Shown piece by piece: positions 2,499-18,788 of a DNA stretch of 39,123 nt. The notes under the pieces were generated by a model that did no database searches, had not been told where the DNA came from, and saw only the letters and a program-made list of their open reading frames with translations. The position numbers were made by a program, and so were the translations under genes. How positions within the stretch are numbered: position 1 is the first letter of the stretch; each line of letters starts with the position of its first letter. Source of the stretch: Candidatus Aenigmatarchaeota archaeon (GTDB lineage: Archaea > Aenigmatarchaeota > Aenigmatarchaeia > Aenigmatarchaeales > Aenigmatarchaeaceae); the NCBI GenBank assembly GCA_018221065.1, contig JAAOXY010000082.1, positions 1 to 39,123 of the forward strand, written 5' to 3'.

Positions 2499-2518
2499 AT
2501 TAATATATATAAGGAATT
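2499..2518 (-). promoter_or_regulatory. early promoter-like cassette core (variant ATTAATATATATAAGGAATT)
   Basis: Member of the repeated core motif family, 50 nt upstream of ATG 2449. Confidence 0.45.
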
Positions 2519-2829
2519 GATCTATATGGTCTATTGGATACTGTCCAGGGCACTAATCCGACTGTTTTTTTGGATCATTCGACACTCAGGATGGGGGTTT
2601 GCTCCAACCGACTAGGAACGGTATTTGTTCGTTTGGGATAGGGTCATTAGATAGTTAGCGGGACTGTGAGCAGGGTTTTGCTCGAGATTTAAAGCGATTC
2701 AAATACCAGGGACAAGAAAAGACATAGGGTTTCTTAATCGGGATTTGTGGTTTAGGATGGAGATGTAACCTGTTCTAAAATTTTCATCTCAAAAGAGATA
2801 TGGTAATTTAGAATGGATGTCTAAAATTT

Positions 2830-3024
2830 TTACAATATTTTTTTTCTTATTCTTTCCTTAATGATAGGTGTCCAATACTTATATTTTATAGGGCAATAAT
2901 GATTACCTTTACACATTATTTTAACAAGACACTTCCCGCATGGGCACCCTTCAGAAGTAATTCCAGATCTCATACAATATGAACTGGGATAATTTTGACT
3001 ACAACCAATACAACTATCTAACAT
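2830..3024 (-). CDS. small Cys-rich protein, CxGC..CPCxxCxVKxMC family (64 aa)
   Basis: ORF track. MLDSCIGC..EGCPCGKCLVKIMC. GGAGGTGTG RBS. Confidence 0.7.
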   Translation of the reverse strand: MLDSCIGCSQNYPSSYCMRSGITSEGCPCGKCLVKIMCKGNHYCPIKYKYWTPIIKERIRKKIL

Positions 3025-3057
3025 TTAAACACACCTCCAAAATTTTTTAAAAAAATT

Positions 3058-3076
3058 TTACCATATATAGGGATTT
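3058..3076 (-). promoter_or_regulatory. degenerate promoter-like core (CCATATATAGGGATT)
   Basis: Partial match to the cassette core, about 35 nt upstream of ATG 3024. Confidence 0.3.
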
Positions 3077-3077
3077 A

Positions 3078-3119
3078 CAGAGACATCTAACTGAGTGGTA
3101 GATGTCTCTGCTAACTATC
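3078..3119 (-). terminator. conserved terminator module (GAGACATC hairpin plus TGCTAACTAT)
   Basis: CAGAGACATC 3078-3087 pairs with GATGTCTCTG 3101-3110, followed by CTAACTAT. The same module recurs five or more times. Confidence 0.55.
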
Positions 3120-3126
3120 CCATATA

Positions 3127-3159
3127 TCTCCCGGTCGCGCTTTGCGGGGCCTGTCGAGA
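3127..3159. repeat. GC-rich hairpin element, copy 1
   Basis: TCTC-CCGGTCGCGCTTTGCGGGGCCTGTC-GAGA. Starts 12 nt below the stop of 3171..3410. Near-identical copies at 4884 and 6356. Confidence 0.6.
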
Positions 3160-3170
3160 ATGTCCCTTTA

Positions 3171-3410
3171 TTAATCGTTGATATCAAAAGCAGTGTTATA
3201 ACATTGAATGGCTTTGATCCAGTCTTCTCCGGCGTAGATAATATTGTTGAGATCATATGAATCATTGATATAAACAACATACACAATGACAGGAATGGAT
3301 GGCATCGCCGTTGCATGGAAATATTTTGTTCCTCTCTTATCTATATCTGATGCTATCACATGACTAAATGAAAAAGTTTGTAGATCTAATATGTCTAATG
3401 TGTGTTTCAT
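3171..3410 (-). CDS. hypothetical protein (79 aa), paralog of 9011..9220
   Basis: ORF track. GGAGGAGGG RBS. Shares HV[IL]AS and IY[AS]G.D..KA...YN with 9011..9220. Confidence 0.65.
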   Translation of the reverse strand: MKHTLDILDLQTFSFSHVIASDIDKRGTKYFHATAMPSIPVIVYVVYINDSYDLNNIIYAGEDWIKAIQCYNTAFDIND

Positions 3411-3440
3411 GATATCCCTCCTCCTATAGGATTATTTTTT

Positions 3441-3459
3441 GGAATAATAAGTTTATTCC
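3441..3459 (-). promoter_or_regulatory. 5' leader hairpin GGAATAA-N5-TTATTCC
   Basis: Inverted repeat between the promoter core and the RBS. About 40 nt of the leader is conserved with 5661-5701. Confidence 0.4.
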
Positions 3460-3467
3460 TTTTGTAT

Positions 3468-3490
3468 CATTAATTAATATATATAGAATT
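3468..3490 (-). promoter_or_regulatory. early promoter-like cassette core
   Basis: CATTAATTAATATATATAGAATT, 58 nt upstream of ATG 3410. Confidence 0.5.
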
Positions 3491-3541
3491 AGCAACCAAA
3501 AATAACGGTGCCGCCGGCAGCTAATTATCTCGGACAAAAAA

Positions 3542-3580
3542 AGAGACACCCAACAAATGTTAGATGTCTCTGCTAACTAA
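3542..3580 (-). terminator. conserved terminator module
   Basis: A-run, AGAGACAC ... GATGTCTCT, then GCTAACTA. The TAG stop of 3577..3867 lies inside CTAACTA. Confidence 0.5.
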
Positions 3581-3867
3581 GTGCTAAATGTGTCTATATC
3601 CTCTCTATCAAAATAGTAATCATCTCCATTATCTTCAATCCATGAAGGTATCATAGAATGATACCAATCTGACCACTCCTTACAACTACATCTAGGAATC
3701 ATTTTAACTATACAATTCACACAAATGCATTGCCCCTCATTATGCTCAACACATGACAAATATCTCTTTTCTTTTAGCGATGCATAGATTCTACAACCAT
3801 TACAGTGTTCATTATCTGTAGTAACTTTAATATAAAGATTATTCTTTTTTCTAATCATAGATAACAT
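3577..3867 (-). CDS. Cys-rich protein, extended family member (96 aa)
   Basis: ORF track. ..HCNGC..GQCICVNCIVKMIPRCSCKEWSDWY (CIC in place of CPC). Confidence 0.65.
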   Translation of the reverse strand: MLSMIRKKNNLYIKVTTDNEHCNGCRIYASLKEKRYLSCVEHNEGQCICVNCIVKMIPRCSCKEWSDWYHSMIPSWIEDNGDDYYFDREDIDTFST

Positions 3868-3875
3868 TTTTACTT

Positions 3876-4049
3876 TTACTCTCTTTCTTTTCTTTTCTCC
3901 TCTATTTTACCCTTAGTTTCGTCCAATAAGTTCTCTCCGTCTATTACGAGTTTTGAGACAAATTCAGAAAAGCCACCAGCTTTCTCACATTTTTGAATTG
4001 TTACAACTAACAATATGATAAATACTATGATAAGTATTGTTTTAAACAT
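3876..4049 (-). CDS. small membrane protein (57 aa)
   Basis: In-frame ATG 4049 with GGAGGATAATA RBS. The longer track start at 4085 would sit inside the terminator hairpin. Confidence 0.6.
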   Translation of the reverse strand: MFKTILIIVFIILLVVTIQKCEKAGGFSEFVSKLVIDGENLLDETKGKIEEKRKERE

Positions 4050-4071
4050 TATTATCCTCCTTTCTAAAAAA

Positions 4072-4114
4072 AGAGACAACCCCATAATGGCTAGATGTCT
4101 CTGCTCACTAACTG
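4072..4114 (-). terminator. conserved terminator module
   Basis: A-run, AGAGACA ... TGTCTCT, then GCTCACTAACTG. Directly below the stop of 4115..4438. Confidence 0.5.
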
Positions 4115-4438
4115 TTAACTATATTCCCTCATTGCCACCTGAATGGTCCAGGGTGTATCAACAGCAAACCCTGCCCTATCCAATTTCAAAACTCCTTCAG
4201 TCCCAAAATCATAGTGCCCGAAATGAGGTTCAAGTTTCGCTAACTTCATGTAGTTTTGACATGTACGAAGACTTATATCGAAGGTCTCTTTCACAAAAGT
4301 TTGCCAATTTCCATGACCTACATCCTCTTTCAATTCAAGAAGTTGTTCTCCAATTCTGACAGCACGATCTACATTTCCCTCATTTGAAGTCATCATACAA
4401 GTTTGAATCTCCCTGCTTATTTCAGGTGCTTTACGCAT
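4115..4438 (-). CDS. hypothetical protein, DUF3102-like (107 aa)
   Basis: ORF track. GHGNWQTFVKETFDISLRTCQNYMKLAKL resembles the GxGxW...S.RTA..YM.LA signature. This is recalled from memory, not searched. Confidence 0.65.
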   Translation of the reverse strand: MRKAPEISREIQTCMMTSNEGNVDRAVRIGEQLLELKEDVGHGNWQTFVKETFDISLRTCQNYMKLAKLEPHFGHYDFGTEGVLKLDRAGFAVDTPWTIQVAMREYS

Positions 4439-4475
4439 AGTAATACCTCCTTATAAAATAAGATTTATGTTTATT

Positions 4476-4498
4476 AGTAATTAATATATATAGGGATT
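4476..4498 (-). promoter_or_regulatory. early promoter-like cassette core
   Basis: AGTAATTAATATATATAGGGATT, 38 nt upstream of ATG 4438. Confidence 0.5.
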
Positions 4499-4549
4499 CC
4501 ATCTAAAAATAACGGTGCCACAAGGCATTTATTACATGGGTTAATCATA

Positions 4550-4624
4550 TTAGGTATCTTCTTCTTTATAAGCAAGATGAATACAATTATCTTCTCCTAT
4601 AAAGCATCCCTCACAGTTATCCAT
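4550..4624 (-). pseudogene. N-terminal fragment of the Cys-rich family (24 codons)
   Basis: MDNCEGCFIGEDNCIHLAYKEEDT*. Keeps the CxGC knuckle but lacks the CPC half. Its ATG overlaps the stop of 4617..4790. Confidence 0.35.
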
Positions 4625-4790
4625 AAGACTCACTCTCCCATTTATTCCATGGATCGCATCCCACTCGGCACATAGTTTTAACTAGACAGTAAGTACATGG
4701 GCAGTCTCCATTTGAATTTCGATCTCGAGTTTGTTTAAAACAACCAATAACACATCCTATACAGTTATCTATACAGTTATCTACACTCAT
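4617..4790 (-). CDS. small Cys-rich protein, family member (57 aa)
   Basis: Hand-translated: MSVDNCIDNCIGCVIGCFKQTRDRNSNGDCPCTYCLVKTMCRVGCDPWNKW.. 58 codons. GGAGGAG lies 9 nt upstream. Confidence 0.6.
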   Translation of the reverse strand: MSVDNCIDNCIGCVIGCFKQTRDRNSNGDCPCTYCLVKTMCRVGCDPWNKWESESYG

Positions 4791-4883
4791 GTTCCATGGC
4801 TCCTCCAGCTTATGATTATTTACCTCCTTTATTTAAAAAAAGAGACGGGGCTGGCGTGCTCACACCCCCCGATCTCTTTTCTC

Positions 4884-4919
4884 ATCCTCCGGTCGCGCTA
4901 TGCGGGGCCTGTCGAGGAT
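4884..4919. repeat. GC-rich hairpin element, copy 2
   Basis: ATCCTC-CGGTCGCGCTATGCGGGGCCTGTC-GAGGAT with a perfect 6-bp outer stem. Sits inside what looks like an interrupted terminator module (AAAAAAAGAGAC ... CTCTGCTAACTATC). Confidence 0.6.
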
Positions 4920-4943
4920 ACCTCTGCTAACTATCATAATGTA

Positions 4944-5651
4944 TTACCTCTTTGTTAATTTTGTCTCAGAACAATTGCTGATAACTCTTGACCCGAAACC
5001 GATACCCCAACAATTAGCCGATTTGATTATAGTATGGCCAGTGGTATGAATAGGGGGTTTGATTGATTTTACATCTTTTCTTATGCCATATACTAACGAT
5101 TCAGAAGGATCTGGATCTTCTTTGTTTATTCTGTAGAAATTATATATAGAAGTCCCCGTATATAATCCCCATTCAAGATTGGCGTTTCCACCATTATCAT
5201 CTATCATCCACAGATCACCATCATTGCTACTTGGAGGACTGCTGATAATGTAAAGTCCAGACTGAGCCATTGTAGCTAAAGTATAACCTCTTGTGAAAGA
5301 ACTTTTTCTTGTAGATTCGAAGCTTGTCAATGTAGTGTTGGCTATAGCTTGTAACAGGAAACCTCCACGGCCTATCATTATTCTATCTGATTGACTGAGG
5401 GCATCATAGTTGGTTACAACTTCGTGCATTCCTTGCTGGTCTATATCACCATCCACCAATTCTGCTGCCACATAATGACCTGCTATATGGGTTGCTGCAC
5501 TAGCGGCTGCCCCTATCAGCATCTCTCCAACATCTTCTGCTTTGACTGCTTCATTCACATCAACACCAAGAATATAAAACTTCATTGATTTTGATGATGC
5601 ACACCCACTAAATCCGAGACATAATAAAATGACACAAATAATATATTTCAT
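4944..5651 (-). CDS. putative lipoprotein (235 aa)
   Basis: ORF track. MKYIICVILLCLGFSGC signal peptide with lipobox. GGAGGGG RBS. Confidence 0.8.
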   Translation of the reverse strand: MKYIICVILLCLGFSGCASSKSMKFYILGVDVNEAVKAEDVGEMLIGAAASAATHIAGHYVAAELVDGDIDQQGMHEVVTNYDALSQSDRIMIGRGGFLLQAIANTTLTSFESTRKSSFTRGYTLATMAQSGLYIISSPPSSNDGDLWMIDDNGGNANLEWGLYTGTSIYNFYRINKEDPDPSESLVYGIRKDVKSIKPPIHTTGHTIIKSANCWGIGFGSRVISNCSETKLTKR

Positions 5652-5678
5652 AGTAACCCCTCCTATAGGATTGTTTTG

Positions 5679-5697
5679 GGAATAATAAGATTATTCC
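5679..5697 (-). promoter_or_regulatory. leader or attenuator hairpin GGAATAA-N5-TTATTCC, copy 2
   Basis: Same inverted repeat and flanks as 3441-3459. Overlaps the stop of 5691..5843. Confidence 0.4.
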
Positions 5698-5843
5698 TTT
5701 TCTATTGTTACTTTTACATTGTCGCCTTTCTGGAAACCATTCAAAGTGAACAAATGAACTTCTACTACAAGATAGGTATCTTCTGGCAGATCCCATACTT
5801 TCTCCTGTACTATCGATGTAGTTTCATATTTTTTCTTGGTCAT
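5691..5843 (-). CDS. hypothetical protein (50 aa)
   Basis: Hand-translated: MTKKKYETTSIVQEKVWDLPEDTYLVVEVHLFTLNGFQKGDNVKVTIEKE. GGAGGAATGAATT precedes the ATG. Confidence 0.45.
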   Translation of the reverse strand: MTKKKYETTSIVQEKVWDLPEDTYLVVEVHLFTLNGFQKGDNVKVTIEKE

Positions 5844-6103
5844 AATTCATTCCTCCTTTCTAATATCCTCTCGGCTAATAATGACGCTCTTCATATTTAT
5901 TAAAGATCTATATCTCTATAGATTTTTATGCAAACCCAGTTACCAATCTATCAAACTCGCACGATTTAAACTTCAATTAATATGAAAAGCTGTTCCAATT
6001 ATTATTATCCTCTTTTTTCCTTTGAGTCTGCCTCCTCCGGAAGCCTTACCAGGTAATCAAGAAGTAATAATCAAAACAGTCATTATTAGCAGACAGAATA
6101 TTA

Positions 6104-6146
6104 GTAGAGACATCCAACTGAGTGTTAGATGTCTCTACTAACTATC
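6104..6146 (-). terminator. conserved terminator module
   Basis: GTAGAGACATC 6104-6114 pairs with GATGTCTCTAC 6128-6138, followed by TAACTATC. Confidence 0.55.
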
Positions 6147-6152
6147 ATCCAC

Positions 6153-6339
6153 CTCAATATTTTCCTTCGCATATGTAATTGTCCCATTCAGGACAGCAGT
6201 CATTATTTGCCTTTTGATCAGGATTACATCTCATTACTTTCATCAAACAAATATTACATGGTCATGATTCATCATTAAAAGTATAACATATTAAATCCTC
6301 TATACTATAAAGAGGACACCCCTCACAATTCTTAGACAT
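6153..6339 (-). pseudogene. disrupted Cys-rich family member (in-frame TGA plus 1-nt frameshift)
   Basis: MSKNCEGCPLYSIEDLICYTFNDES-TGA(6262-6264)-PCNICLM, then a +1 shift into KVMRCNPDQKANNDCCPEWDNYICEGKY*. Span is 187 nt (3n+1). Confidence 0.55.
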
Positions 6340-6355
6340 AAAATAATCTCCTTTT

Positions 6356-6391
6356 ATCCCCCGATCGCGCTTTGCGGGGCCTGGTGGGGAT
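6356..6391. repeat. GC-rich hairpin element, copy 3
   Basis: ATCCCC-CGATCGCGCTTTGCGGGGCCTGGT-GGGGAT with a perfect 6-bp outer stem. Directly below the stop at 6393. Confidence 0.6.
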
Positions 6392-6392
6392 T

Positions 6393-6548
6393 TTATCCAC
6401 CAACGGGTTTTCTGTGGGATCTGGGCGGACTGTTGTATTGATAAGAAACGTACCGTTTTTTACTTTTCTTGTATTTGTGGATAACGAAAGGACTGATAAC
6501 AATGATTGTAGCGATGGTTGCATAAAGTGAAATCAAGAATAGATCCAT
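6393..6548 (-). CDS. small membrane protein (51 aa)
   Basis: Hand-translated codon by codon: MDLFLISLYATIATIIVISPFVIHKYKKSKKRY.. GGAGGAGATAAAAA RBS. Promoter core 47 nt upstream. Confidence 0.45.
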   Translation of the reverse strand: MDLFLISLYATIATIIVISPFVIHKYKKSKKRYVSYQYNSPPRSHRKPVGG

Positions 6549-6594
6549 TTTTTATCTCCTCCTTAAAGTTAAATAAGTTTAATAATTTATTATT

Positions 6595-6616
6595 AGTAAT
6601 TAATATATATAGAATT
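6595..6616 (-). promoter_or_regulatory. early promoter-like cassette core
   Basis: AGTAATTAATATATATAGAATT. Confidence 0.5.
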
Positions 6617-6658
6617 AACATCTAAAAATAACGGTGCCGCCGGCAGCTTGCTATCCCG

Positions 6659-6943
6659 TTAAATATCTTGATCTTTCACATCTCCTTTTTTTAAGCAATG
6701 TTTTTGGACACTATAAGGGGGATCCAACTTAAATTCTGCTCTAATACTATTCACAACACTTCTTACTCTGTTAGCTCCAGAATCTTTAGACCCCTTTGGG
6801 CGCTTACTATTTTTAGTAAAGTAATCACATATTATAGAACAATGAACCTGGCTTAATATTGGAGCAACACCTCTATTGTTACTATGTACCATAGCATTAC
6901 ATATAGCAAATGTTATACAGTCTTTACATGGAATTTTACTCAT
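6659..6943 (-). CDS. Cys-containing protein, PCKxCIxxAIC subfamily (94 aa)
   Basis: ORF track. MSKIPCKDCITFAICNA.. parallels 8597..8806. Confidence 0.7.
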   Translation of the reverse strand: MSKIPCKDCITFAICNAMVHSNNRGVAPILSQVHCSIICDYFTKNSKRPKGSKDSGANRVRSVVNSIRAEFKLDPPYSVQKHCLKKGDVKDQDI

Positions 6944-7077
6944 TTGCTTTCTTCCTCTTTATCGTCTTTGTATTTATCGATTGCATCTTTAGCTATTTTC
7001 TGAGCAGTCTTCCATAATCCAACTTCAAGGGAAACTATTTTATTAAGAGCATTTAATAACTCACCAATCGAAGCCAT
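6940..7077 (-). CDS. hypothetical helical protein (45 aa)
   Basis: Hand-translated, 46 codons. ATGA stop/start overlap with 6659..6943. Its ATG overlaps the end of 7061..7267. Confidence 0.4.
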   Translation of the reverse strand: MASIGELLNALNKIVSLEVGLWKTAQKIAKDAIDKYKDDKEEESK

Positions 7078-7267
7078 TGTATCTTTCCTTTCTGCTTTTA
7101 TTTTGTTTTTTCTTAATATAATAATCTTTAATAGTTAAGATGATTGCTATAATTCCACATAAGATAGCCCATGCCACTAGAAAATCAAAGTCATATTTTG
7201 GTTTAGATATTATTCTTAGGAATACAGCAACAACAAACATACTATAGAAAGTTACTTTAATAGACAT
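7061..7267 (-). CDS. membrane protein (68 aa)
   Basis: ORF track. AAGGAGGATAAATTA RBS. Two hydrophobic segments. Confidence 0.65.
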   Translation of the reverse strand: MSIKVTFYSMFVVAVFLRIISKPKYDFDFLVAWAILCGIIAIILTIKDYYIKKKQNKSRKERYNGFDW

Positions 7268-7291
7268 TAATTTATCCTCCTTTTAAAAAAA

Positions 7292-7321
7292 AGAGACATC
7301 CCTTAACTGGGAGATGTCTCT
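7292..7321 (-). terminator. terminator hairpin (AGAGACATC / GATGTCTCT)
   Basis: A-run followed by a 9-bp stem. Lies between 7338..7874 and 7061..7267. Confidence 0.55.
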
Positions 7322-7337
7322 CTATAAATCAAAGATC

Positions 7338-7874
7338 CTATTTATGGATTTTGATCTCGCCGACCTTTTCATCATCATTGACAATCATAACAGTTATTCC
7401 TGTTAATGTCTCATCATTGAATCTCATGTATATCAAGCTGACTTCCTCAACAATTCTATTATTGCTGATCCCTACTCCAGTGTTAAATCCAAAGAATAAA
7501 CCTCTTTGGGTGCGTGTAGTTTGGGTTCCGGCTGGTGTCCCACAGTAATACTTCACTCTATCTATGGGATCGCCTTTTTTAATTTCCTTCCCATCACATT
7601 TTAGGACATTGTCTGATATATCAATTTTGCCCCTATGCCTTTCTGCGGCATCAGATTCAGAGACTCCAACAGCAATCATAAGAGCAACACCAATGAAGAA
7701 AAATATTACTGCTATACAAAACCATCGAATCATCAATCTTTTTAATTGTATTACAATGGGATCCTTCAAACCATATCCTTTTCTTAATCTGTTCTCCCGA
7801 TCTTTTTCAAATGGACTTGCTTTTAGTAATGCAACAATTGCTAGAATCATTGCTAAAGCACCTAGAATAATCAT
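7338..7874 (-). CDS. membrane-anchored protein (178 aa)
   Basis: ORF track. GGAGGTGTCATT RBS. N-terminal hydrophobic segments. Confidence 0.75.
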   Translation of the reverse strand: MIILGALAMILAIVALLKASPFEKDRENRLRKGYGLKDPIVIQLKRLMIRWFCIAVIFFFIGVALMIAVGVSESDAAERHRGKIDISDNVLKCDGKEIKKGDPIDRVKYYCGTPAGTQTTRTQRGLFFGFNTGVGISNNRIVEEVSLIYMRFNDETLTGITVMIVNDDEKVGEIKIHK

Positions 7875-7903
7875 AATGACACCTCCTTTTAATTTAAATT
7901 AGG

Positions 7904-7973
7904 TACCCCGCAGAGGGGTCGAACCTCCTGTGCCGCTTCGTAAAAGAACGGCTGCTCCTAACAGCAACGGGGT
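7904..7973 (-). tRNA. tRNA-like element with a non-canonical anticodon arm
   Basis: Minus-strand read: a 7-bp acceptor stem (ACCCCGT/GCGGGGT), U8, a D-loop GG, a T arm GGAGG-TTCGACC-CCTCT, and a discriminator A followed by CC. The anticodon arm has either a C.A mismatch with loop UUUUACG, or a perfect 5-bp stem CCGUU/AGCGG with a 9-nt loop CUUUUACGA. Confidence 0.4.
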
Positions 7974-7980
7974 ATGATAA

Positions 7981-8520
7981 CTATCCCAATCTACTATCAT
8001 GATCAAACATTTTAACAAATTGTTTTGCCATACCTTTTACTTGGCCTTGTAGTATAATTCCCCAAGTGTCTCTTATTTTTTTTACTGAAAGAATCTCAAG
8101 TTTCTCAAATTCCATTTCCCCCACTTCGACATACATTCGGGCAAGAATGTGACATATTGAATCTCCCTCTGAAACTGATCCGATGATATTCAAACTCTTG
8201 AAATCAACTCCTCCTCCTGCTTCAGAAGCCATCTCTACTGAGTTACGTAAGAAATTTGCGAAGAAGTCTATATCAGACATTTCTTTTATATCTTCTATGG
8301 TTTTTTCACTCCCAAAGAGCCCTTCAAAAAGGCCTGCCGAAAACTCTTCAGGGAATTCTACAGAAGATGCTTCTAATGGGGATGTTATCATAGATTTAAA
8401 CTCTTTCAATGCTTCTGGAGTATACAGTTTAGCAACCTCGTTCCATTCCTTCTTCTGTAGCTTTATAAAATACAATTTGGCCAAGAATTCTTCCGATTTA
8501 ACTACATTGTCTTTTACCAT
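7981..8520 (-). CDS. hypothetical acidic protein (179 aa)
   Basis: ORF track. GGAGGAGATATTACA RBS. Promoter core 40 nt upstream. Confidence 0.75.
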   Translation of the reverse strand: MVKDNVVKSEEFLAKLYFIKLQKKEWNEVAKLYTPEALKEFKSMITSPLEASSVEFPEEFSAGLFEGLFGSEKTIEDIKEMSDIDFFANFLRNSVEMASEAGGGVDFKSLNIIGSVSEGDSICHILARMYVEVGEMEFEKLEILSVKKIRDTWGIILQGQVKGMAKQFVKMFDHDSRLG

Positions 8521-8559
8521 TGTAATATCTCCTCCTGATAAAATAAGATTTTGTTTATT

Positions 8560-8581
8560 AGTAATTAATATATATAGAATA
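8560..8581 (-). promoter_or_regulatory. early promoter-like cassette core
   Basis: AGTAATTAATATATATAGAATA. Confidence 0.5.
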
Positions 8582-8596
8582 AGTCGCTAAAAATAA

Positions 8597-9797: not shown

Positions 9798-9819
9798 AAT
9801 AATTAATATATATAGAATT
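9798..9819 (-). promoter_or_regulatory. early promoter-like cassette core
   Basis: AATAATTAATATATATAGAATT, 44 nt upstream of ATG 9754. Confidence 0.5.
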
Positions 9820-10167: not shown

Positions 10168-10191
10168 CATTCATTAATATATATAGTAATT
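10168..10191 (-). promoter_or_regulatory. early promoter-like cassette core
   Basis: CATTCATTAATATATATAGTAATT, 44 nt upstream of ATG 10124. Confidence 0.5.
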
Positions 10192-10747: not shown

Positions 10748-10769
10748 AGAAATTAATATATATAGAATT
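10748..10769 (-). promoter_or_regulatory. early promoter-like cassette core
   Basis: AGAAATTAATATATATAGAATT. Confidence 0.5.
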
Positions 10770-12309: not shown

Positions 12310-12314
12310 AGTCT

Positions 12315-12506: not shown

Positions 12507-13677
12507 AATCTCTAACTGCTTCAGCTTCAGCTGGGACTCCAACTGGTTGAAGTGGAACTCCATCTTCAGATAGTTCTGCATACCTGACAGTTAACATTGA
12601 ACCAATATCATTTGGAAGATTTAGAAGCATTGCTTTACGATCTTCGACTGTGCCTCTTGGCCTGGCATCAAACTCTATTCCTGTTTTGCTAATGCATCTA
12701 TATATGATACATCCCTCATCAGTTCCGGTACCTTCTTTTCCACCAACTATTTCAAACTCATCATCTTGATATGCTTTTACTTTTTCAAGATCATCTGAGT
12801 TATATTGAAATAGATATATTCCGTTTACATTCTTTAACATGGCTCCTTCAAAACCATTTTGAACACAATCATCGTGATATGCTTTTGCTTCAGCGTAGTT
12901 ATGAACTATCTTGCTTGGGGAAAATTTAATAGGACATATCATATCAGAATGATTTAACTCTAGTTTTGTTACTTCTTTCATAATCCATTTTATTCTTTCT
13001 TCAAATGTAGGTCCAATCCAAGCAATATCATATAACCAGTATTCTAAAAGGTGTTGATCTGGTTTTATTTTTTTGGTATATGATCCAATCTTTTGAAGAC
13101 TCCATCCATGAACATATAATTCTCCATGTACTGGAGCTGGAGCCTTAAGTTCTTTCAACCACGAATCAAGATGGGCAAGAGTGTTAAATAAATGACCACC
13201 TCTTGAATGATGAATCATTTGAAAATGTTCTACATCGATTTCAGCCAAATTACAAATGCCATTGAACTTCGGTTGAATATATGCGGGATATACAATCTTT
13301 CCTTTACCAACTCCCTTTGCGAGCTGAGGTAGCATGAGTCTTGGTTCATACTTAGGACCAACATTAGCAGAGCCATTTTTATTAACCTGGGGGTCGAGTA
13401 AGCCCAAATCAAACTCATAGTTGGCAGCTCTCTTAACTGTCAGCTGTGATTCAATTTGAGATTTAGCTTGCTCAAATGGAGTTGTTTCATTTGCTTTTCC
13501 AATATTCTTTCCCTTCTTTATTAGCTTTGGCATTGGTCGAATCTTCTGACCAACATAACCAGACTCAACAATAATAGATGCCGTATGGTTATCATGTTCT
13601 ACAACTTTCGCTTGCCATTGTTTCAATTTCCCTGTTCTACTTACTCCGAATAGTGCTGGAAGTTCTACGTTTTGCAT
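12499..13677 (-). CDS. lig: ATP-dependent DNA ligase (392 aa)
   Basis: ORF track. Nucleotidyltransferase motifs: PKFNG (KxDG-type motif I), EGAMLK (motif IV), LEKVK (motif V). Confidence 0.88.
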   Translation of the reverse strand: MQNVELPALFGVSRTGKLKQWQAKVVEHDNHTASIIVESGYVGQKIRPMPKLIKKGKNIGKANETTPFEQAKSQIESQLTVKRAANYEFDLGLLDPQVNKNGSANVGPKYEPRLMLPQLAKGVGKGKIVYPAYIQPKFNGICNLAEIDVEHFQMIHHSRGGHLFNTLAHLDSWLKELKAPAPVHGELYVHGWSLQKIGSYTKKIKPDQHLLEYWLYDIAWIGPTFEERIKWIMKEVTKLELNHSDMICPIKFSPSKIVHNYAEAKAYHDDCVQNGFEGAMLKNVNGIYLFQYNSDDLEKVKAYQDDEFEIVGGKEGTGTDEGCIIYRCISKTGIEFDARPRGTVEDRKAMLLNLPNDIGSMLTVRYAELSEDGVPLQPVGVPAEAEAVRDYE

Positions 13678-13877
13678 TATATTTCTTTTCCTTTCATTTC
13701 TTTATATCTTTGTCTCCATGCATAATTCCAGTATATCCATTTTGTGCAATCATCTTCTTTATCATGTTTACACATTACTTTAACAATGCAATTATGACAC
13801 GGGCATGAACCATTAATTCCATAGCATACATGAAAGCATGTTTTCTCTACTGAACACCCTCTACAGTTTGTCATCAT
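13677..13877 (-). CDS. small Cys-rich protein, family member (66 aa)
   Basis: ORF track. MMTNCRGC..GSCPCHNCIVKVMC. Stop overlaps the ligase ATG. Confidence 0.75.
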   Translation of the reverse strand: MMTNCRGCSVEKTCFHVCYGINGSCPCHNCIVKVMCKHDKEDDCTKWIYWNYAWRQRYKEMKGKEI

Positions 13878-13881
13878 TTTA

Positions 13882-14070
13882 TTAGTCTTTTAGGTATTCA
13901 TATTCAAGATCATCAGGCTGTTTTCCATATTGCATCTTCATTGTTTCTATTTTACTCTCTGCTGCTTTGGGCAGAGCGAATCCTCCCACAATGCCTTTAC
14001 CATGACAATTCCACCTTGGATCTAATTTAGATTCTAACCACCATGATCCTTCTTTCATACTCATATACAT
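13882..14070 (-). CDS. hypothetical protein (62 aa)
   Basis: ORF track. GGAGA upstream. The in-frame ATG at 14064 has better spacing and may be the true start. Confidence 0.6.
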   Translation of the reverse strand: MYMSMKEGSWWLESKLDPRWNCHGKGIVGGFALPKAAESKIETMKMQYGKQPDDLEYEYLKD

Positions 14071-14118
14071 TCTCCTTTCAGAATAATTATTTTGATTTGC
14101 ATGTCTTCCCTCCTTAAG

Positions 14119-14152
14119 AAAAAAATAGTGCCCCTAAAAATTCGGGGCACTA
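14119..14152 (-). terminator. intrinsic terminator
   Basis: AGTGCCCC ... GGGGCACT 8-bp stem, with a T-run on the minus strand. Below the stop of 14158..14343. Confidence 0.65.
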
Positions 14153-14157
14153 CTTGA

Positions 14158-14343
14158 TTAAAAACTATATTCCATTGCAAGTTCGAGTTCCTTAAGCACT
14201 TGTTCATGAACTGTATCTGGAAGACGTTGACCTGTTTCAAGATCGATGACTTCAAAGATTGATAAGGCTTGTTCAACTTTTGAAAACCAAACCCCATATC
14301 CACAACCGTCGATATAAACATTTTTTGTCATTAGACTTTTCAT
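14158..14343 (-). CDS. hypothetical protein (61 aa)
   Basis: ORF track. GGAGGTAGTACT RBS. Confidence 0.6.
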   Translation of the reverse strand: MKSLMTKNVYIDGCGYGVWFSKVEQALSIFEVIDLETGQRLPDTVHEQVLKELELAMEYSF

Positions 14344-14356
14344 AGTACTACCTCCA

Positions 14357-14623
14357 TCATCGCAGATTTTTGTGCATTATTAAAAGATGACTCCCAACTC
14401 TCTTTCTCAGCTTTGATCTTCTGTTTTGTATGGCAGCTACAGATCTTCCCAAACATCCATGGAGGTCACGATCTGATAGTTCTGATGTAATAATGAGAGC
14501 GTCTTCATCAGCAGTGTATAGTTGACATTTATTTATTGTTGGGTGGAACTGATCATAGTATTTCTTTTTACCTGCTTGCCATATATCCGGATGTTTTACC
14601 CTCCATCTTTTATTCGGTGTCAT
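14357..14623 (-). CDS. putative Myb/SANT-like helix-turn-helix protein (88 aa)
   Basis: ORF track. YTADEDALI...LGRSVAAIQNRRSKL resembles a Myb-like repeat. This is a weak, motif-level call only. Confidence 0.55.
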   Translation of the reverse strand: MTPNKRWRVKHPDIWQAGKKKYYDQFHPTINKCQLYTADEDALIITSELSDRDLHGCLGRSVAAIQNRRSKLRKRVGSHLLIMHKNLR

Positions 14624-14790
14624 TTTTTCACCTCCTTGGTTAGTGACTCTAAAAGTTGAAGACTGGCAACATTTGTATTGTATTTTTTTATCTTCTTTAA
14701 TCGTCTGGCTATTTTTCCACCAGGCCGAAAACGATAGTGATTCATACGTCTTTGATGTTTGAATTTTTTATTCCCGTCTCTTCTTGGCAT
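14620..14790 (-). CDS. highly basic small protein (56 aa)
   Basis: Hand-translated, 57 codons: MPRRDGNKKFKHQRRMNHYRFRPGGKIARRLKKIKKY.. GGAGGAGTTACA RBS. ATGA overlap with the next gene. Confidence 0.45.
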   Translation of the reverse strand: MPRRDGNKKFKHQRRMNHYRFRPGGKIARRLKKIKKYNTNVASLQLLESLTKEVKK

Positions 14791-14815
14791 TGTAACTCCT
14801 CCTTGTTTACAATGT

Positions 14816-15064
14816 TTATTCGGGTTTAATTATGGGGCCGATAACGTAATTCTTTATTTTGTCTAAAACTAAATTTACTTCTGCTGTATCTAAGTTTGAG
14901 GATGTTGCTTGAACATGAAAATTATTTCTATCAATTTTTTCGACGAGAATGACTATACCAGCATTAGGACCTTCAATTTTTTCAGCATCTTTTAACATCC
15001 CCTCTACTGTTTGAAATCTGGTGTCTCCGGTTTTATCATAAAGATCTATGATCTTTCTTGCCAT
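14816..15064 (-). CDS. hypothetical protein (82 aa)
   Basis: ORF track. GGAGGAATT RBS. Confidence 0.7.
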   Translation of the reverse strand: MARKIIDLYDKTGDTRFQTVEGMLKDAEKIEGPNAGIVILVEKIDRNNFHVQATSSNLDTAEVNLVLDKIKNYVIGPIIKPE

Positions 15065-15078
15065 AATTCCTCCTTTGT

Positions 15079-15104
15079 AAAAAAAGGGAATGCCTCAATT
15101 CCCC
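15079..15104 (-). terminator. intrinsic terminator
   Basis: GGGAAT ... ATTCCC stem, with a T-run on the minus strand. Confidence 0.5.
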
Positions 15105-15122
15105 TCTTCCTCTTGATTAGTA

Positions 15123-15317
15123 TTAAACTTTGATAAGCTCAACTTTGTCGCATATGTCATGAGCTAAATTATAAATACCATACCCAAGTAAGTGTGTTGC
15201 TGCTGCATTAAACTTTTCGTTCGCAAGATACACAGTTCCACAATCCATCTCATGAATATTTTCCGGATAGTAATCCCCTTCATCATTTTTCTTTAAGGAA
15301 ACCAATCTTAATATCAT
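15123..15317 (-). CDS. hypothetical protein (64 aa)
   Basis: ORF track. GGAGGTGTG RBS. Promoter core 50 nt upstream. Confidence 0.65.
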   Translation of the reverse strand: MILRLVSLKKNDEGDYYPENIHEMDCGTVYLANEKFNAAATHLLGYGIYNLAHDICDKVELIKV

Positions 15318-15366
15318 TCTTTCACACCTCCTTTCTAATTAAATTAGTAATGAATAACTTCTTACT

Positions 15367-15388
15367 ATTAATTAATATATATAGTATT
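15367..15388 (-). promoter_or_regulatory. early promoter-like cassette core
   Basis: ATTAATTAATATATATAGTATT. Confidence 0.5.
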
Positions 15389-15431
15389 CACATATAAAAG
15401 GAAGGAGTGGGGATAAAAAAAGGGAACATAG

Positions 15432-15626
15432 TTATCCCTTTTTTGGAAGGGAAGATTCGCAACCCCATTCGTAAGTTTTGAATTCTATACATTCTTCTGA
15501 ACACATAACTTTTACAACACAATTAGTACATGGACAAGAGGCGTTTATATTATAGTTGATATATTTACATCGAACGTCTCCACTCTCATAGGAATAGATT
15601 TTACAGCCTTCACAAAACTTATCCAA
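15432..15626 (-). CDS. small Cys-rich protein, family member (64 aa)
   Basis: ORF track. TTG start with AGGAG 7 nt upstream. MDKFCEGC..ASCPCTNCVVKVMC. Confidence 0.65.
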   Translation of the reverse strand: MDKFCEGCKIYSYESGDVRCKYINYNINASCPCTNCVVKVMCSEECIEFKTYEWGCESSLPKKG

Positions 15627-15678
15627 AATATTTCTCCTTTATTCGTCTGCTAAATTAATCAAATCCTCCATTTTTAAT

Positions 15679-15710
15679 AAAAAAAGAGGACCTCCTACTC
15701 CCTCTTTTTT
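15679..15710 (-). terminator. weak intrinsic terminator
   Basis: A-run, AGAGG ... CCTCT, T-run. Confidence 0.4.
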
Positions 15711-15719
15711 GGTTTAAGA

Positions 15720-16028
15720 TTATCGTAAAGTCTGTCTTTTCCATGGTTCTTTTTCTATTCGATAAATATACCAGCCTGCGGATATGAAGACCAGAGCGGT
15801 TACAGTACCACAAATGACCCAGATAGCCCATTTGATATAAACTCCTATTGTTAAGGGCTTATTTCCTTTGATATCCTCATAACTGAATATGGATGCTATA
15901 AATAATCCACAAGCAAACCAGAACATTATCACAAACGTAGTGGGTGGCCATGTGAAATAGAACAGCACAGACATTAGACTACCCCATATGACGAAGAACC
16001 AAATTGGTACGACATTATCTTGTTTCAT
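15720..16028 (-). CDS. polytopic membrane protein (102 aa)
   Basis: ORF track. Three or four hydrophobic segments. Confidence 0.7.
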   Translation of the reverse strand: MKQDNVVPIWFFVIWGSLMSVLFYFTWPPTTFVIMFWFACGLFIASIFSYEDIKGNKPLTIGVYIKWAIWVICGTVTALVFISAGWYIYRIEKEPWKRQTLR

Positions 16029-16059
16029 AAGTTTTTCTCCTTTTTAGATTGTAGATTGC

Positions 16060-16302
16060 TTATACATAATTCCCTATAATATAAACAATCCCACACATGA
16101 CGGTGACTCCACAGGCAGTATACCCAAAAATGATTCCAATTACCTTTACAAACTCAGCATCAATATTCCACCACCATCTTGGCTTATAGTACTTGATGCT
16201 GCCATGTTTGCTTGAGAGATCAACCTGTACTTTTCGATTCTTCTTAATCATGATCAAAAGAATCAGAAATGCCACCGATGCAAACAATATTGGTAGATTC
16301 AT
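16060..16302 (-). CDS. membrane protein (80 aa)
   Basis: ORF track. N- and C-terminal hydrophobic segments. Confidence 0.7.
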   Translation of the reverse strand: MNLPILFASVAFLILLIMIKKNRKVQVDLSSKHGSIKYYKPRWWWNIDAEFVKVIGIIFGYTACGVTVMCGIVYIIGNYV

Positions 16303-16327
16303 AGCTCACCTCCTTACTTTTAATGTA

Positions 16328-16585
16328 TTAGCTCCTGCCCGATTCAAGCTCATAACCTTTTATTTCCATGCACCCCTCAAACACTTTTCTCCAGACTTCA
16401 ACTCGCTCATGATACTTGATGACCCCATCCATAGAAGCTTCATAGGCTTTGGTATTGCAGTAGTCTTTGTCAGCTTCAAACTGATTTTGGCTTTGCATCT
16501 TTAAAGGAGTAAAGAGTTTCTTGGGAGTTTGAGCACATGCTCCAAACATCAAAAACACTAGGGCTATAATCGTTAATTGTTTCAT
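16328..16585 (-). CDS. putative lipoprotein (85 aa)
   Basis: In-frame ATG 16585 with GGAGGAG RBS. MKQLTIIALVFLMFGAC signal peptide with lipobox. Confidence 0.7.
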   Translation of the reverse strand: MKQLTIIALVFLMFGACAQTPKKLFTPLKMQSQNQFEADKDYCNTKAYEASMDGVIKYHERVEVWRKVFEGCMEIKGYELESGRS

Positions 16586-16720
16586 AAGATACTCCTCCTG
16601 TAAAATTATTGAACATCTTGAATTAAGAATAAGACATAACCAATCCACCATAAACTCGCCGCCGTTAATTCATACCACTTGAGTTTATCAATCAACATAA
16701 ATTGATAATCGATTAATAAC

Positions 16721-17194
16721 TTAAGGAGTTGCTTCAATGGTTCCACCTGGCCCATGAACTTCAAACCAATGAAGCGAATTGTCATGTTTGGCGAACATGT
16801 GGTATTGATCAATGCTATGAGTAATAACGATTGTAATATCACTTGAGATATCATTTATTTCCTGACAGGATCCGGTTGAAGCATATGTTTGATAATCAGT
16901 ATAATATGCTTCCTGTGCTAGTACTGCTGTGTGAAGTGCTGACATCGCATCTGTATCAAATGCTCTCACTCGATAATATGCAAACTGAGGAATTGCAATA
17001 GCAGCAAGGGTACCAATGATGGCTATAACTATTATCAACTCGATGAGAGTGAAACCTTTTTCATCGCTTCTAATCTTTATCATCTTTTTTGGTTTTGATC
17101 TAGAACCGAATTTAAGAATCCATAACACCAAGACGACACCGATCATGATTGAGAAACTCCAGATCATAAAATCATCACTTTGTAAATAAGTCAT
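16721..17194 (-). CDS. type IV pilin-like / pseudopilin-like protein (157 aa)
   Basis: ORF track. KGFTLIELIIVIAIIGTLAAIAIPQF is the prepilin N-terminal cleavage/methylation motif. A strong GGAGG RBS serves the long form starting at 17194. An internal ATG at 17083 would give a classic short leader. Confidence 0.75.
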   Translation of the reverse strand: MTYLQSDDFMIWSFSIMIGVVLVLWILKFGSRSKPKKMIKIRSDEKGFTLIELIIVIAIIGTLAAIAIPQFAYYRVRAFDTDAMSALHTAVLAQEAYYTDYQTYASTGSCQEINDISSDITIVITHSIDQYHMFAKHDNSLHWFEVHGPGGTIEATP

Positions 17195-17229
17195 AGTATT
17201 ACCTCCTTTTAATTTAGTATATATTTCTT

Positions 17230-17394
17230 TTATTTTCTGTATTTTTTATTCATTTCTTTAACCAATGGATCAATAATTTCATCTCCCCTTTTAACGAGAT
17301 GTTTAAGTTCATCGTCTTCAATGGTTGTTTCCTTGAGAGTTTTTAACAACATCGCCAAGGTCATAAGATCGGCATCATATATAATAGAACTCAT
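17230..17394 (-). CDS. hypothetical protein (54 aa)
   Basis: In-frame ATG 17394 with AAGGAGG RBS. Promoter core 53 nt upstream. Confidence 0.6.
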   Translation of the reverse strand: MSSIIYDADLMTLAMLLKTLKETTIEDDELKHLVKRGDEIIDPLVKEMNKKYRK

Positions 17395-17446
17395 TTGAAC
17401 CTCCTTTTTTAGGTTAATAAATATATACAAATAGGTCTTTTATTTT

Positions 17447-17468
17447 CATTAATTAATATATATAGAAA
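17447..17468 (-). promoter_or_regulatory. early promoter-like cassette core
   Basis: CATTAATTAATATATATAGAAA. Confidence 0.5.
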
Positions 17469-17525
17469 AACGAAATAAAGGGAACAAAAAAATGTCCGTC
17501 CCTTACACCCGCCCGATAACTATAT

Positions 17526-17548
17526 CAATAATTAATATATATAGAAAG
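17526..17548 (-). promoter_or_regulatory. early promoter-like cassette core (orphan tandem copy)
   Basis: CAATAATTAATATATATAGAAAG. No ORF lies between it and the next core. On the minus strand it is followed by an AAGGGAC..GTTCCCTT hairpin and a T-rich tract. Confidence 0.4.
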
Positions 17549-17563
17549 TGAAACTAAAAAAAG

Positions 17564-17597
17564 GTAGGGGACAACTTATAAATAAGAAGTCCCCTAC
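17564..17597 (-). terminator. 9-bp hairpin GTAGGGGAC / GTCCCCTAC with T-run on the minus strand
   Basis: Seen directly in the strand-switch region. Confidence 0.45.
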
Positions 17598-17691
17598 AGA
17601 AAGGAGATAGATAACTACATGTATACTATTAATAAAGTTGATCCGCGGCATACAAGCGCGAAACTCCAGTATATGAATATACTGGAATAAC

Positions 17692-17700
17692 TAGAACAAA
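17692..17700 (+). promoter_or_regulatory. + strand operon motif TAGAACAAA
   Basis: 19 nt upstream of ATG 17720. One of six copies. Confidence 0.45.
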
Positions 17701-17719
17701 TATCAAAGGAGATTTAGTT

Positions 17720-18322
17720 ATGAATGATTATAATAAAGATAATTATGAGATCAAAAAATCTGATATTCATGGGCGTGGGGTTTTTTCAAATAAGAATTTT
17801 AGCGCAGGTGAATTGATTAATTTGGCTATTGATAATATGCAGGCAACACACTTCGGCGGATTCTTAAATCATTCTGATTCTCCAAATGCCGTTACAAGAA
17901 AAAATAAAAATAAGTATTATACTTTTGCTTTGGCTAGAATTAAACCAGGTGATGAAATAGCAGTTGATTATACTGTCAATAAAGATCTTGAGCAACCAGA
18001 ATCTACATGGAAATATCATCAAGAAGCTTCGCCAAATAATGGAGTATTCACTGATACAAATCCAAAAGTAGATGATGAAACTATTTCTTCTTTATATAAA
18101 GGGACTGTTCCTCAAGGAAAAAATGCTGAAGTAGAAGTTGATGACGATGTTGAAGAAAGCACAACTGCCAATCAACCAAATCCTGGTTTCGCTTCTGGGA
18201 TAGATAAGAGCCCGGACGATTCATATCTTAATCTTCTTAAAAAATCTATCAAACCAACAAAGATAGTAATCAATATAACTAAAGATAATAGGGGAGCTGA
18301 TCCTTATAATAAAGTTCACTAA
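17720..18322 (+). CDS. minimal SET-domain methyltransferase-like protein with acidic low-complexity tail (200 aa)
   Basis: ORF track. HGRGVFS..F.AGELI, GGFLNHSDSPNA (NHSxxPN motif), IKPGDEIAVDY (post-SET-like ELxxDY position). Confidence 0.75.
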   Translation: MNDYNKDNYEIKKSDIHGRGVFSNKNFSAGELINLAIDNMQATHFGGFLNHSDSPNAVTRKNKNKYYTFALARIKPGDEIAVDYTVNKDLEQPESTWKYHQEASPNNGVFTDTNPKVDDETISSLYKGTVPQGKNAEVEVDDDVEESTTANQPNPGFASGIDKSPDDSYLNLLKKSIKPTKIVINITKDNRGADPYNKVH

Positions 18323-18362
18323 AAAATACCACACATAATAGTAACCATGTGTAGTATTTTTG
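18321..18362. terminator. bidirectional terminator
   Basis: A-run, ATACCACACAT ... ATGTGTAGTAT, T-run. Lies between convergent genes. Confidence 0.6.
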
Positions 18363-18370
18363 TTTCTCTC

Positions 18371-18538
18371 CTATTTAGACGATTTCCTGTGATGTGTTGA
18401 TTTTCTCTTTTTGGATTTTTTTCTCTTTGCTTTTGCCTGGAATCTTGCTTCCATTCGTTTCTCTCTGGCTCTGGCGTTCAGTATTGTTACCACCGTACTA
18501 AACGAAAGCAATCCAATGTAAAACCACATTTTTCCCAT
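18371..18538 (-). CDS. small membrane protein with highly basic tail (55 aa)
   Basis: In-frame ATG 18538 with GGGGGATAAATACT, the same 17-nt initiation region as at 1937. Confidence 0.55.
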   Translation of the reverse strand: MGKMWFYIGLLSFSTVVTILNARAREKRMEARFQAKAKRKKSKKRKSTHHRKSSK

Positions 18539-18554
18539 AGTATTTATCCCCCTT

Positions 18555-18740
18555 TTAATTAAACATTTTGAGTCTAGGTTGTGTGAAGACCAGGTCACCA
18601 TTCCTCGGATTTATAACATAATCTTCATATATTTCAAGCGTTCGGAATTTTGGTTTTGTCTCTCTTGGGATGAAATGGAACATCTGGTCAAAGGCTAGAA
18701 ACAAACCGGATAGTAATATTATAAATACTGAAATAGTCAT
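18555..18740 (-). CDS. small membrane protein (61 aa)
   Basis: In-frame ATG 18740 with GGAGGTATTTGCT RBS. Promoter core 25 nt upstream. Confidence 0.55.
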   Translation of the reverse strand: MTISVFIILLSGLFLAFDQMFHFIPRETKPKFRTLEIYEDYVINPRNGDLVFTQPRLKMFN

Positions 18741-18764
18741 AGCAAATACCTCCTTAGATTTATT

Positions 18765-18788
18765 CACTAATTAATATATATAGTAATT
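18765..18788 (-). promoter_or_regulatory. early promoter-like cassette core
   Basis: CACTAATTAATATATATAGTAATT. Confidence 0.5.

Follow-up and report, generated by a model that had tools for sequence, protein, structure and literature searches.

A conserved AT-rich motif ahead of small leftward genes is a probable early promoter of phages that encode multi-subunit RNA polymerases

Introduction

Which RNA polymerase transcribes the small leftward genes of contig JAAOXY010000082.1 (GenBank assembly GCA_018221065.1), and from what signal? This 39,123-nt stretch, called the window here at its full length, carries in its left part a short AT-rich motif that recurs just upstream of one minus-strand gene after another. 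The motif, the 17-mer TCTATATATATTAATTA in the gene-strand (minus) reading, is almost certainly a promoter of some kind and very probably one that is read by a phage polymerase. Taken as a whole, the results indicate that it is probably the early promoter of a phage-encoded multi-subunit RNA polymerase (RNAP), itself probably delivered with the virion, in a large uncultured tailed phage of the multimeric-RNAP-encoding Caudovirales (mReC) lineage.

AT-rich early promoters of large phages with their own multi-subunit polymerases are known already; what is new is this motif. The mReC were described on the basis of polymerase phylogeny by Weinheimer and Aylward in 2020 (PMC7481178), in a text that does not mention promoters and in which a search found no mention of two polymerase sets per genome. 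As of a 2020 review, no virion RNAP of a large phage had been purified (PMC7598289), and the way in which virion polymerases recognise promoters, with no sigma factor taking part, is still an open question. Searches of the literature gave no phage paper on the motif, and no earlier description was found of its near-invariant state in an mReC-type clade, of an AACA-type motif paired with it or of the gp226-like gene associated with it.

The motif in the window

The plus-strand pattern TTAATTAATATATATAG matches the window 11 times with at most two mismatches, against 0.08 matches expected, and none of 100 shuffled sequences attained 11. All 11 matches have the same, leftward orientation. The 12-mers of the motif are the most over-represented words of the window (11-12 copies vs. 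~0.1 expected). Thus, the repeated cassette that a first inspection of the letters (the sequence-only reading) had described ahead of minus-strand genes is real. The copies are given in Table 1. Eleven of the positions listed as good copies in that reading agree with the present ones within 1-3 nt, whereas the copy at 2499 turned out to be degenerate (13/17), and the copy at 3058, which had been called degenerate, is present but weaker still than the one at 2497-2513.

The same reading had named equal frequency in coding sequence as an outcome that would refute it. At up to two mismatches, the 15-mer core has 16 matches in the window. Fifteen of these fall between genes, although coding sequence takes up 84% of the window, and 14 of the 16 have a gene start of the same orientation within 250 nt. 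The end of the 17-mer lies 39-60 nt from the ATG, with a GGAGG-type ribosome-binding site (RBS) in between, except for the copy at 17529-17545, which has no open reading frame (ORF) of its own. This copy may produce a short (non-coding) RNA or may be a tandem promoter with an attenuator. The array headed by the copy at 15369 contains an ATP-dependent DNA ligase gene (12499-13677), the next copy being found only at 10766. The direction of transcription switches and the GC skew changes sign at 18768-18807, and the rightward half of the window has no copy of the 17-mer at up to two mismatches. A scan of Rfam gave no matches at gathering thresholds.

Conservation of the motif in a clade with two RNA polymerases

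The exact 17-mer is present in at least 120 IMG/VR loci, mostly 20-70 nt before an RBS and an ATG, and several motif-bearing contigs of 60-280 kb hold many copies. The largest family among the ORFs of at least 350 aa near the motif is the RNAP beta subunit (~1370-1400 aa; Pfam Rpb2_6, E = 6.8e-45). The beta' subunit (~1000 aa; Rpb1 domains 1-5, with the catalytic motif NADFDGD) forms a further family. The two subunit genes stand side by side, and neither is split. Other genes seen repeatedly near the motif code for terminase, tail sheath, an SLT-domain virion protein and a PolB-UDG fusion. A search anchored on beta' alone yielded at least 505 loci, with two paralogous beta' genes on many contigs. 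The beta' proteins of set A are 45-65% identical to the query and those of set B ~29%, and each is followed by a beta gene in the loci examined. Examples of contigs with two unsplit beta'/beta sets are IMGVR_UViG_3300025713_000650 (loci L163 and L212) and 3300040758_000214 (L151 and L167). At least 21 of the motif-anchored contigs recur among the top 80 polymerase-anchored loci.

One contig with at least five exact copies, IMGVR_UViG_3300001782_000005, is the mReC contig WOR52_10000459 (277,131 bp). With at least one motif-rich contig listed as mReC, and with unsplit beta and beta' genes carrying NADFDGD, the motif-bearing contigs resemble the mReC clade. The cultured phages in GenBank contain no close homologue of either beta' (at most 30% identity). 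The beta' gene of set B is packed tightly behind a small ORF without a promoter-like gap, and one of these genes (L065:1760-4966) contains an intein (Pfam Intein_splicing, E = 1.1e-12).

Analysis of 31 set-A loci, fetched via the protein and independently of the motif, showed 30 near-exact copies (at most one mismatch in 17) compared with 0.15 in Markov-simulated sequence. These copies are distributed over 18 of the 31 loci, at 24-38% GC. Of the 75 matches to the 15-mer core with at most two mismatches in these loci, 58 are intergenic in sequence that is 88% coding, and 32 have a gene start of the same orientation within 250 nt vs. 4 in the opposite-orientation control. A cruder gene-association test over all motif matches gave a weak result (110 vs. 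82), because unrelated AT-rich contigs were mixed in and the RBS rule was strict.

Across 596 Gbp of genomes from bacteria and archaea, the 17-mer is nearly always a scattered singleton at chance level, which gives no clue to the host. The exception is a 136-kb contig, CAYYIP010000005.1 (L246, L250, L259 and L297), which has at least six exact 17-mers, lies in a 'Hyphomicrobiales' metagenome-assembled genome (MAG) and is probably a phage of this clade that was mis-binned. The near-absence of the 17-mer from cellular genomes therefore indicates that the motif belongs to the phage clade and is not a general bacterial signal.

The motif does not have a sigma-70 architecture

A scan of bases 1-19999 with the sigma-70 consensus found 69 sites vs. 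89±10 in shuffled sequence, none of which coincides with a motif copy. A logo built from 337 non-redundant instances of the motif in related contigs reads t-C-TATATATATTAATTA-n-T-R-A, with the information confined to positions -2 to +18; neither a -35 position nor a TG extension is conserved in it. The sequence-only reading had likewise seen no TTGACA-type -35 element, and none was found in the window scan or in the logo. The heptamer TTGTTCT, located 20-25 nt upstream of the motif in relatives, was considered as a -35 or UP-like element and rejected, being the reverse complement of the divergent late-type motif AGAACAA, at variable spacing.

The motif might still be a host sigma-A early promoter, in which TATATT (motif positions 4-9) serves as the -10 element, the AT-rich flanks add strength and the phage polymerases transcribe later genes only. 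TATATT matches TATAAT at five of six positions, including A-11 and T-7, the conserved T-R 6-7 nt downstream provides a workable start distance, and strong host promoters drive the early genes of many phages. However, the logo is empty upstream of -2, lacking both a -35 and a TG, the sigma-70 scan shows no enrichment and misses all copies, and nine bases outside the hexamer are 83-95% conserved. Furthermore, the same 17-mer is retained in genomes ranging from 24 to 38% GC, it is almost confined to scattered singletons in the cellular genomes apart from the one likely phage contig, and the clade already encodes two polymerases. A host sigma-A promoter is thus considered unlikely.

A related alternative is that the host core polymerase reads the motif together with a phage sigma-like factor, as in the '-10-only' late promoters of T4. 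Those promoters have the sequence TATAAATA and are used with gp55; like them, the motif is compact, AT-rich and without a -35. However, a scan of 30 window ORFs against Pfam and PHROGs showed no sigma-like protein, the motif stands before small early-type genes and a gp226-like gene rather than before structural genes, and a redirected host enzyme is unnecessary given two phage polymerases. The probability of this alternative is judged to be low.

A gp226-like gene, a second motif and the promoters of AR9

The set-A loci have the gene order early motif, an ORF of ~485 aa, a second motif (TTAGAACAAA), an ORF of ~148 aa, beta' and beta. Genes for the ~485-aa protein lie just upstream of set-A beta' at L143:7906-9363, L148:8013-9458 and 21 further set-A loci. 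Comparison by hhalign of 23 of the ~485-aa proteins with seven proteins of the gp226 family gave a probability of 85% (E = 5.8e-6) at equivalent positions (166-249 vs. 184-266), while controls with 15 unrelated families and with reversed sequences gave at most 0.4% (E of at least 0.13). Judged by this profile comparison, the ~485-aa protein is a remote homologue of gp226 of AR9. Thirteen of 23 diverse set-A loci have the motif, or a sub-clade variant such as TATATATATTATATT and TACATATATTTATTT, at a distance of 8-240 nt ahead of the gene for the ~485-aa protein. The sequence around it is unalignable, so the motif at this position is a phylogenetic footprint. The genes for AR9 g226, BpSp gp281 and phiR1-37 g245 are each directly preceded by an AT-rich early promoter of their own.

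The second motif, TTAGAACAAA, lies on the plus strand of the window 20-35 nt ahead of rightward ATGs (Table 1). With at most one mismatch it has 17 matches in the window compared with 8.5±3 expected, and none of 100 shuffles attained 17. The two motifs are split between gene classes in the relatives: TTAGAACAAA stands before terminase genes (7 of 11) but before no gp226-like gene (0 of 25), whereas the early motif precedes 8 of the 25 gp226-like genes and no terminase gene. AACA-type variants of TTAGAACAAA are found ahead of four of seven PolB-UDG genes. The two motifs often stand back to back in divergent intergenic regions, in the window at 18768-18807. Late promoters of AR9 (AACA-(6N)-TA/G) are recognised by its non-virion polymerase with gp226. 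Since TTAGAACAAA resembles them, it is a candidate late promoter, or promoter of a non-virion polymerase.

The early promoters of AR9 (n = 41, from differential RNA sequencing and primer extension) have the consensus AAATATATATTAT-(6N)-G+1, are active without protein synthesis and have been attributed to the injected virion polymerase (PMC5312081). As read in the record, they are c-AAATATATATTAT-ataatTG-a. The motif has in common with them the ten-base core ATATATATTA, a T-purine 5-6 nt downstream as the start context, the lack of a -35 and the presence of many copies before early operons. In both systems, the promoter or motif is found directly ahead of the gene that encodes the specificity subunit of the non-virion polymerase (gp226 in AR9, the remote homologue in the relatives here) and is paired with a late motif containing AACA. 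The differences lie in the 3' half, which is AATTA in the motif vs. T and 6N in AR9, with the start register shifted by one base, and in the enzymes, which are unsplit beta'/beta pairs in the clade but four or five fragments in AR9, with proteins at most 30% identical. Moreover, the AR9 promoter was mapped, whereas the motif is known from sequence alone.

Cassettes, leaders and hairpins

The repeat is longer than the core: alignments span 63 nt for eight copies and 87 nt for five, the latter including an upstream block and a leader (Table 1). The conserved spacer pointed out in the sequence-only reading was confirmed, with one leader type in three copies (TAATAAAC(A)AAATCTTAT..., also given as TAATAAAC(A)AAATCTTATTTTAT) and a second type in two copies. 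Several copies are located ~12 nt past the T-run that closes a hairpin. As hairpins and repeats flank the core, the region appears as a chain of short units, each composed of a terminator, the promoter-like core, a leader, an RBS and a small ORF.

This organisation bears on the alternative that the motif is not a promoter but serves in RNA processing or as a repressor site or operator, or that it is simply what stays conserved in a mobile, duplicating cassette. A repeat that spans 63-87 nt in five copies, including the leader and the upstream GC-rich block, fits the duplication of a cassette, which has been described for the 'PeSL' elements of T4-type phages. However, the ~20-nt core alone is conserved in distant relatives with unalignable flanks. 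This core is no palindrome but an asymmetric sequence; it always points the same way as the gene downstream of it and comes after terminators. A unit beginning past a terminator must have a promoter, and no other candidate is present. A function other than that of a promoter is therefore very improbable.

A GC-rich element of 45 nt occurs three times in this AT-rich region (3117-3161, 4875-4919 and 6347-6391), close to where genes end or start. Its minus-strand sequence is ...CGACAGGCCCCGCA(A/T)AGCGCGACCGG(A/G)G..., and its predicted folds are unremarkable.

Proposed transcription scheme

Of the three options offered by the sequence-only reading, the comparative evidence favours a phage-specific promoter, and an extended -10 or UP-type element and an operator are disfavoured. 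The motif is oriented and intergenic, stands at a fixed short distance from the gene, does not fit sigma-70, is conserved throughout the clade and has an AR9-like core and geometry; for these reasons a phage-specific promoter is preferred. By analogy with AR9 and phiKZ, one of the two phage beta'/beta enzymes would be carried in the virion and injected, a step to which we give moderate credence. The injected enzyme would bind the AT-rich element of ~17-20 bp, needing neither a -35 nor a host sigma factor, and start at the conserved purine 2-3 nt past the motif (just beyond TTAATTA-n-T). Transcription would then run through short leftward units made up of small genes of the host-takeover type, and a hairpin terminator placed ~12 nt ahead of the next promoter would mark the boundary of each. 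The label 'early' would suit both these small leftward genes and the position of the motif before the gp226-like gene in the relatives. There, the same promoter would drive the ~485-aa gp226 homologue, the putative specificity subunit of a second, non-virion polymerase. Armed with this factor, the second polymerase would read the TTAGAACAAA-type promoters of the rightward and structural genes. The window's own genome would also be expected to encode such polymerases.

Several observations weigh against this scheme. No RNAP gene was found in the window, which in this respect differs from the mReC clade, and the suggested placement of the window in the clade derives from protein matches of 28-60% identity together with the two motifs. 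The proposed promoter function is read from the position and the conservation of the motif. The 5/6 match of TATATT to the sigma-A -10, at a workable start distance, means that a host polymerase with a phage factor could be involved. The match of the ~485-aa family to gp226 spans just 83 columns. Sets A and B both match the less diverged non-virion subunits and cellular-like phage polymerases at ~25-29% identity, so that neither is assignable as virion or non-virion. The set-B genes lie within long co-directional arrays without a clear promoter, and in one sub-lineage the early motif is located ~950 nt upstream of set B, which does not fit a simple scheme.

Relationship of the window to the clade

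Among the contigs compared, relatives of the window proteins were found only on clade contigs (28-60% identity), including a tail and baseplate-like block, the DNA ligase and three further proteins (Table 1). These protein matches and the presence of both motifs suggest that the genome of the window belongs to the two-polymerase clade, which we consider likely. A megablast search with window positions 2000-19000 against GenBank phages gave no matches, and neither did a tblastn search with the 881-aa protein of the window. The 537-aa and 454-aa proteins match only tail-type genes of unrelated phages. One of these phages, Virus Rctr197k, was considered as a relative and rejected, since it has 63% GC and encodes PolA. 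An identical copy of one window gene is present on a 3.3-kb Logan contig from run SRR15671255.

Comparison with other systems and significance

Early promoters of phiKZ-type phages and of phiR1-37 are ~10 nt long, AT-rich and centred near -10 (PMC7598289). The present motif resembles them as a conserved, AT-rich element that bioinformatics can detect ahead of early operons, in phages that carry two multi-subunit polymerases. However, their motifs vary from phage to phage (PMC7598289), whereas here one 17-mer is near-invariant across divergent contigs. The promoters of T7-like single-subunit RNAPs (~23 bp) are, like the motif, long, near-invariant and phage-specific and overlap the start site, but no single-subunit polymerase was seen here and the polymerases associated with the clade are multi-subunit.

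The 'PeSL' cassettes of T4-type phages consist of a sigma-70 early promoter and a stem-loop repeated between small ORFs. The window shares with them stereotyped units of a hairpin and an early promoter that lie between small, rapidly evolving early genes, as well as signs that cassettes were duplicated. The promoters of PeSL cassettes are of the sigma-70 type, however, and the window motif fails the sigma-70 pattern.

For an uncultured and widespread clade, the results supply a sharply defined candidate promoter, a candidate late promoter and a candidate specificity subunit. The motif makes promoter recognition by unsplit phage polymerases testable, and these polymerases, being unsplit, are expected to be expressed more readily than the AR9 and phiKZ enzymes, which consist of four or five pieces. 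In practice, the motif marks early transcription units and supports small-gene calls in metagenomic phage contigs, and it flags contigs of the clade, including those mis-binned into bacterial MAGs.

A more tentative idea, which we hold to be possible though not the likelier case, is that the AT-rich early promoter and its sigma-independent recognition are an ancient trait common to the split polymerases of the AR9/PBS1 type and the unsplit ones of the mReC. In that case, hundreds of divergent uncultured phages that differ in their hosts would have kept one and the same 17-mer almost unaltered. The motif and the gp226-like factor would then offer a handle to reconstitute promoter-specific initiation by an unsplit phage polymerase, and would help to date the split between virion and non-virion polymerases.

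Feature coordinates and other observations

Table 1. Positions of motif copies, cassettes, hairpins and selected genes in the window. Fractions give identities to the 17-mer; distances run from the motif to the ATG.
Feature	Position	Strand	Details
Degenerate copy CTTATATATATTAATAT, 13/17	2497..2513	-	47 nt before ATG of ORF 2192-2449
Weak copy CCCTATATATGGTAAAA	3056..3074	-	precedes ORF 2830-3024; hairpin 3079-3110 ahead of copy
Copy, 17/17	3471..3487	-	ATG 3410 (79 aa), 60 nt
Copy, 16/17	4478..4494	-	conserved leader TAATAAACATAAATCTTATTTTAT; ATG 4438 (107 aa), 39 nt
Copy, 17/17	6597..6613	-	ATG 6548 (51 aa), 48 nt
Copy, 17/17	8562..8578	-	ATG 8520 (179 aa), 41 nt
Copy, 17/17	9800..9816	-	ATG 9754 (126 aa), 45 nt
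Copy, 15/17	10171..10187	-	ATG 10124 (77 aa), 46 nt
Copy, 16/17	10750..10766	-	ATG 10708 (56 aa), 41 nt
Copy, 16/17	15369..15385	-	ATG 15317; heads ~4.6-kb leftward gene array
Copy, 17/17	17450..17466	-	ATG 17394, 55 nt
Copy, 17/17, without own ORF	17529..17545	-	followed by ~55 nt, then hairpin and T-run (17502-17481), then the 17450 copy
Copy, 16/17	18768..18784	-	before ORF 18555-~18741; back to back with rightward motif 18798-18807
Full cassette (leader, motif, upstream block AAAAATAACGGTGCCGCCGGCAGC)	3446..3532	-	reference copy
Cassette copies	4453-4539, 6572-6658, 8537-8623, 9775-9861	-	62-84% identical to the reference copy (3446-3532) across 87 nt
Intrinsic-terminator-like hairpin	3542..3571	-	conserved stem AGAGACATC/GATGTCTCT, T-run; directly upstream of the 3471 copy
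Sister hairpins	6100-6142, 7290-7323, ~4072-4102, 3079-3110	-	reuse stem AGAGACATC/GATGTCTCT, mostly with T-run
TTAGAACAAA, exact	19000-19009, 26623-26632, 28884-28893	+	26623-26632 ahead of tail-fibre-like gene 26662
TTAGAACAAA, one mismatch	17691-17700, 18798-18807, 37853-37862, 38765-38774	+	
Tail and baseplate-like block	29578-34301		31-52% identity to clade contigs
DNA ligase	12499-13677	-	37% identity, on set-B contig
Protein	19905-20441		29% identity, on contig carrying both polymerase sets
Protein	4944-5651		35% identity, on mReC contig
Protein	34314-34835		60% identity to clade contig
Cys-rich family	2830-3024, 3577-3867, 4617-4790, 10776-11266, 12111-12581, 13677-13877, 15432-15626	-	
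Cys-rich family	169-521	+	

The window encodes at least 12 paralogous small proteins of 55-96 aa with the Cys-rich signature CxGC...(G/S)CPCxxCxVKxMC...W, visible at the DNA level as a 51-nt repeat of 11 copies. To judge from the signature, this looks like a zinc-finger-like early gene family. At 7902-7973 on the minus strand, ARAGORN calls a tRNA with the anticodon UUA, which would be an ochre suppressor; it has a GGTTCGA T-loop and a cloverleaf-like fold. The call is below the Rfam tRNA gathering score, and the window ORFs look intact under the standard code.

Directly after a collagen-like tail-fibre gene, two tandem ORFs of 158 aa (27685-28161 and 28172-28648, plus strand) are 80% identical to each other and have no family match. 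The plus-strand region 20460-26605, beside the tail genes, encodes the 881-aa protein, which has a C-terminal glycosyltransferase domain, together with a PIG-L-type deacetylase and a radical SAM protein. Inside the tail module, positions 33257-33823 encode an HNH/NUMOD3 endonuclease.

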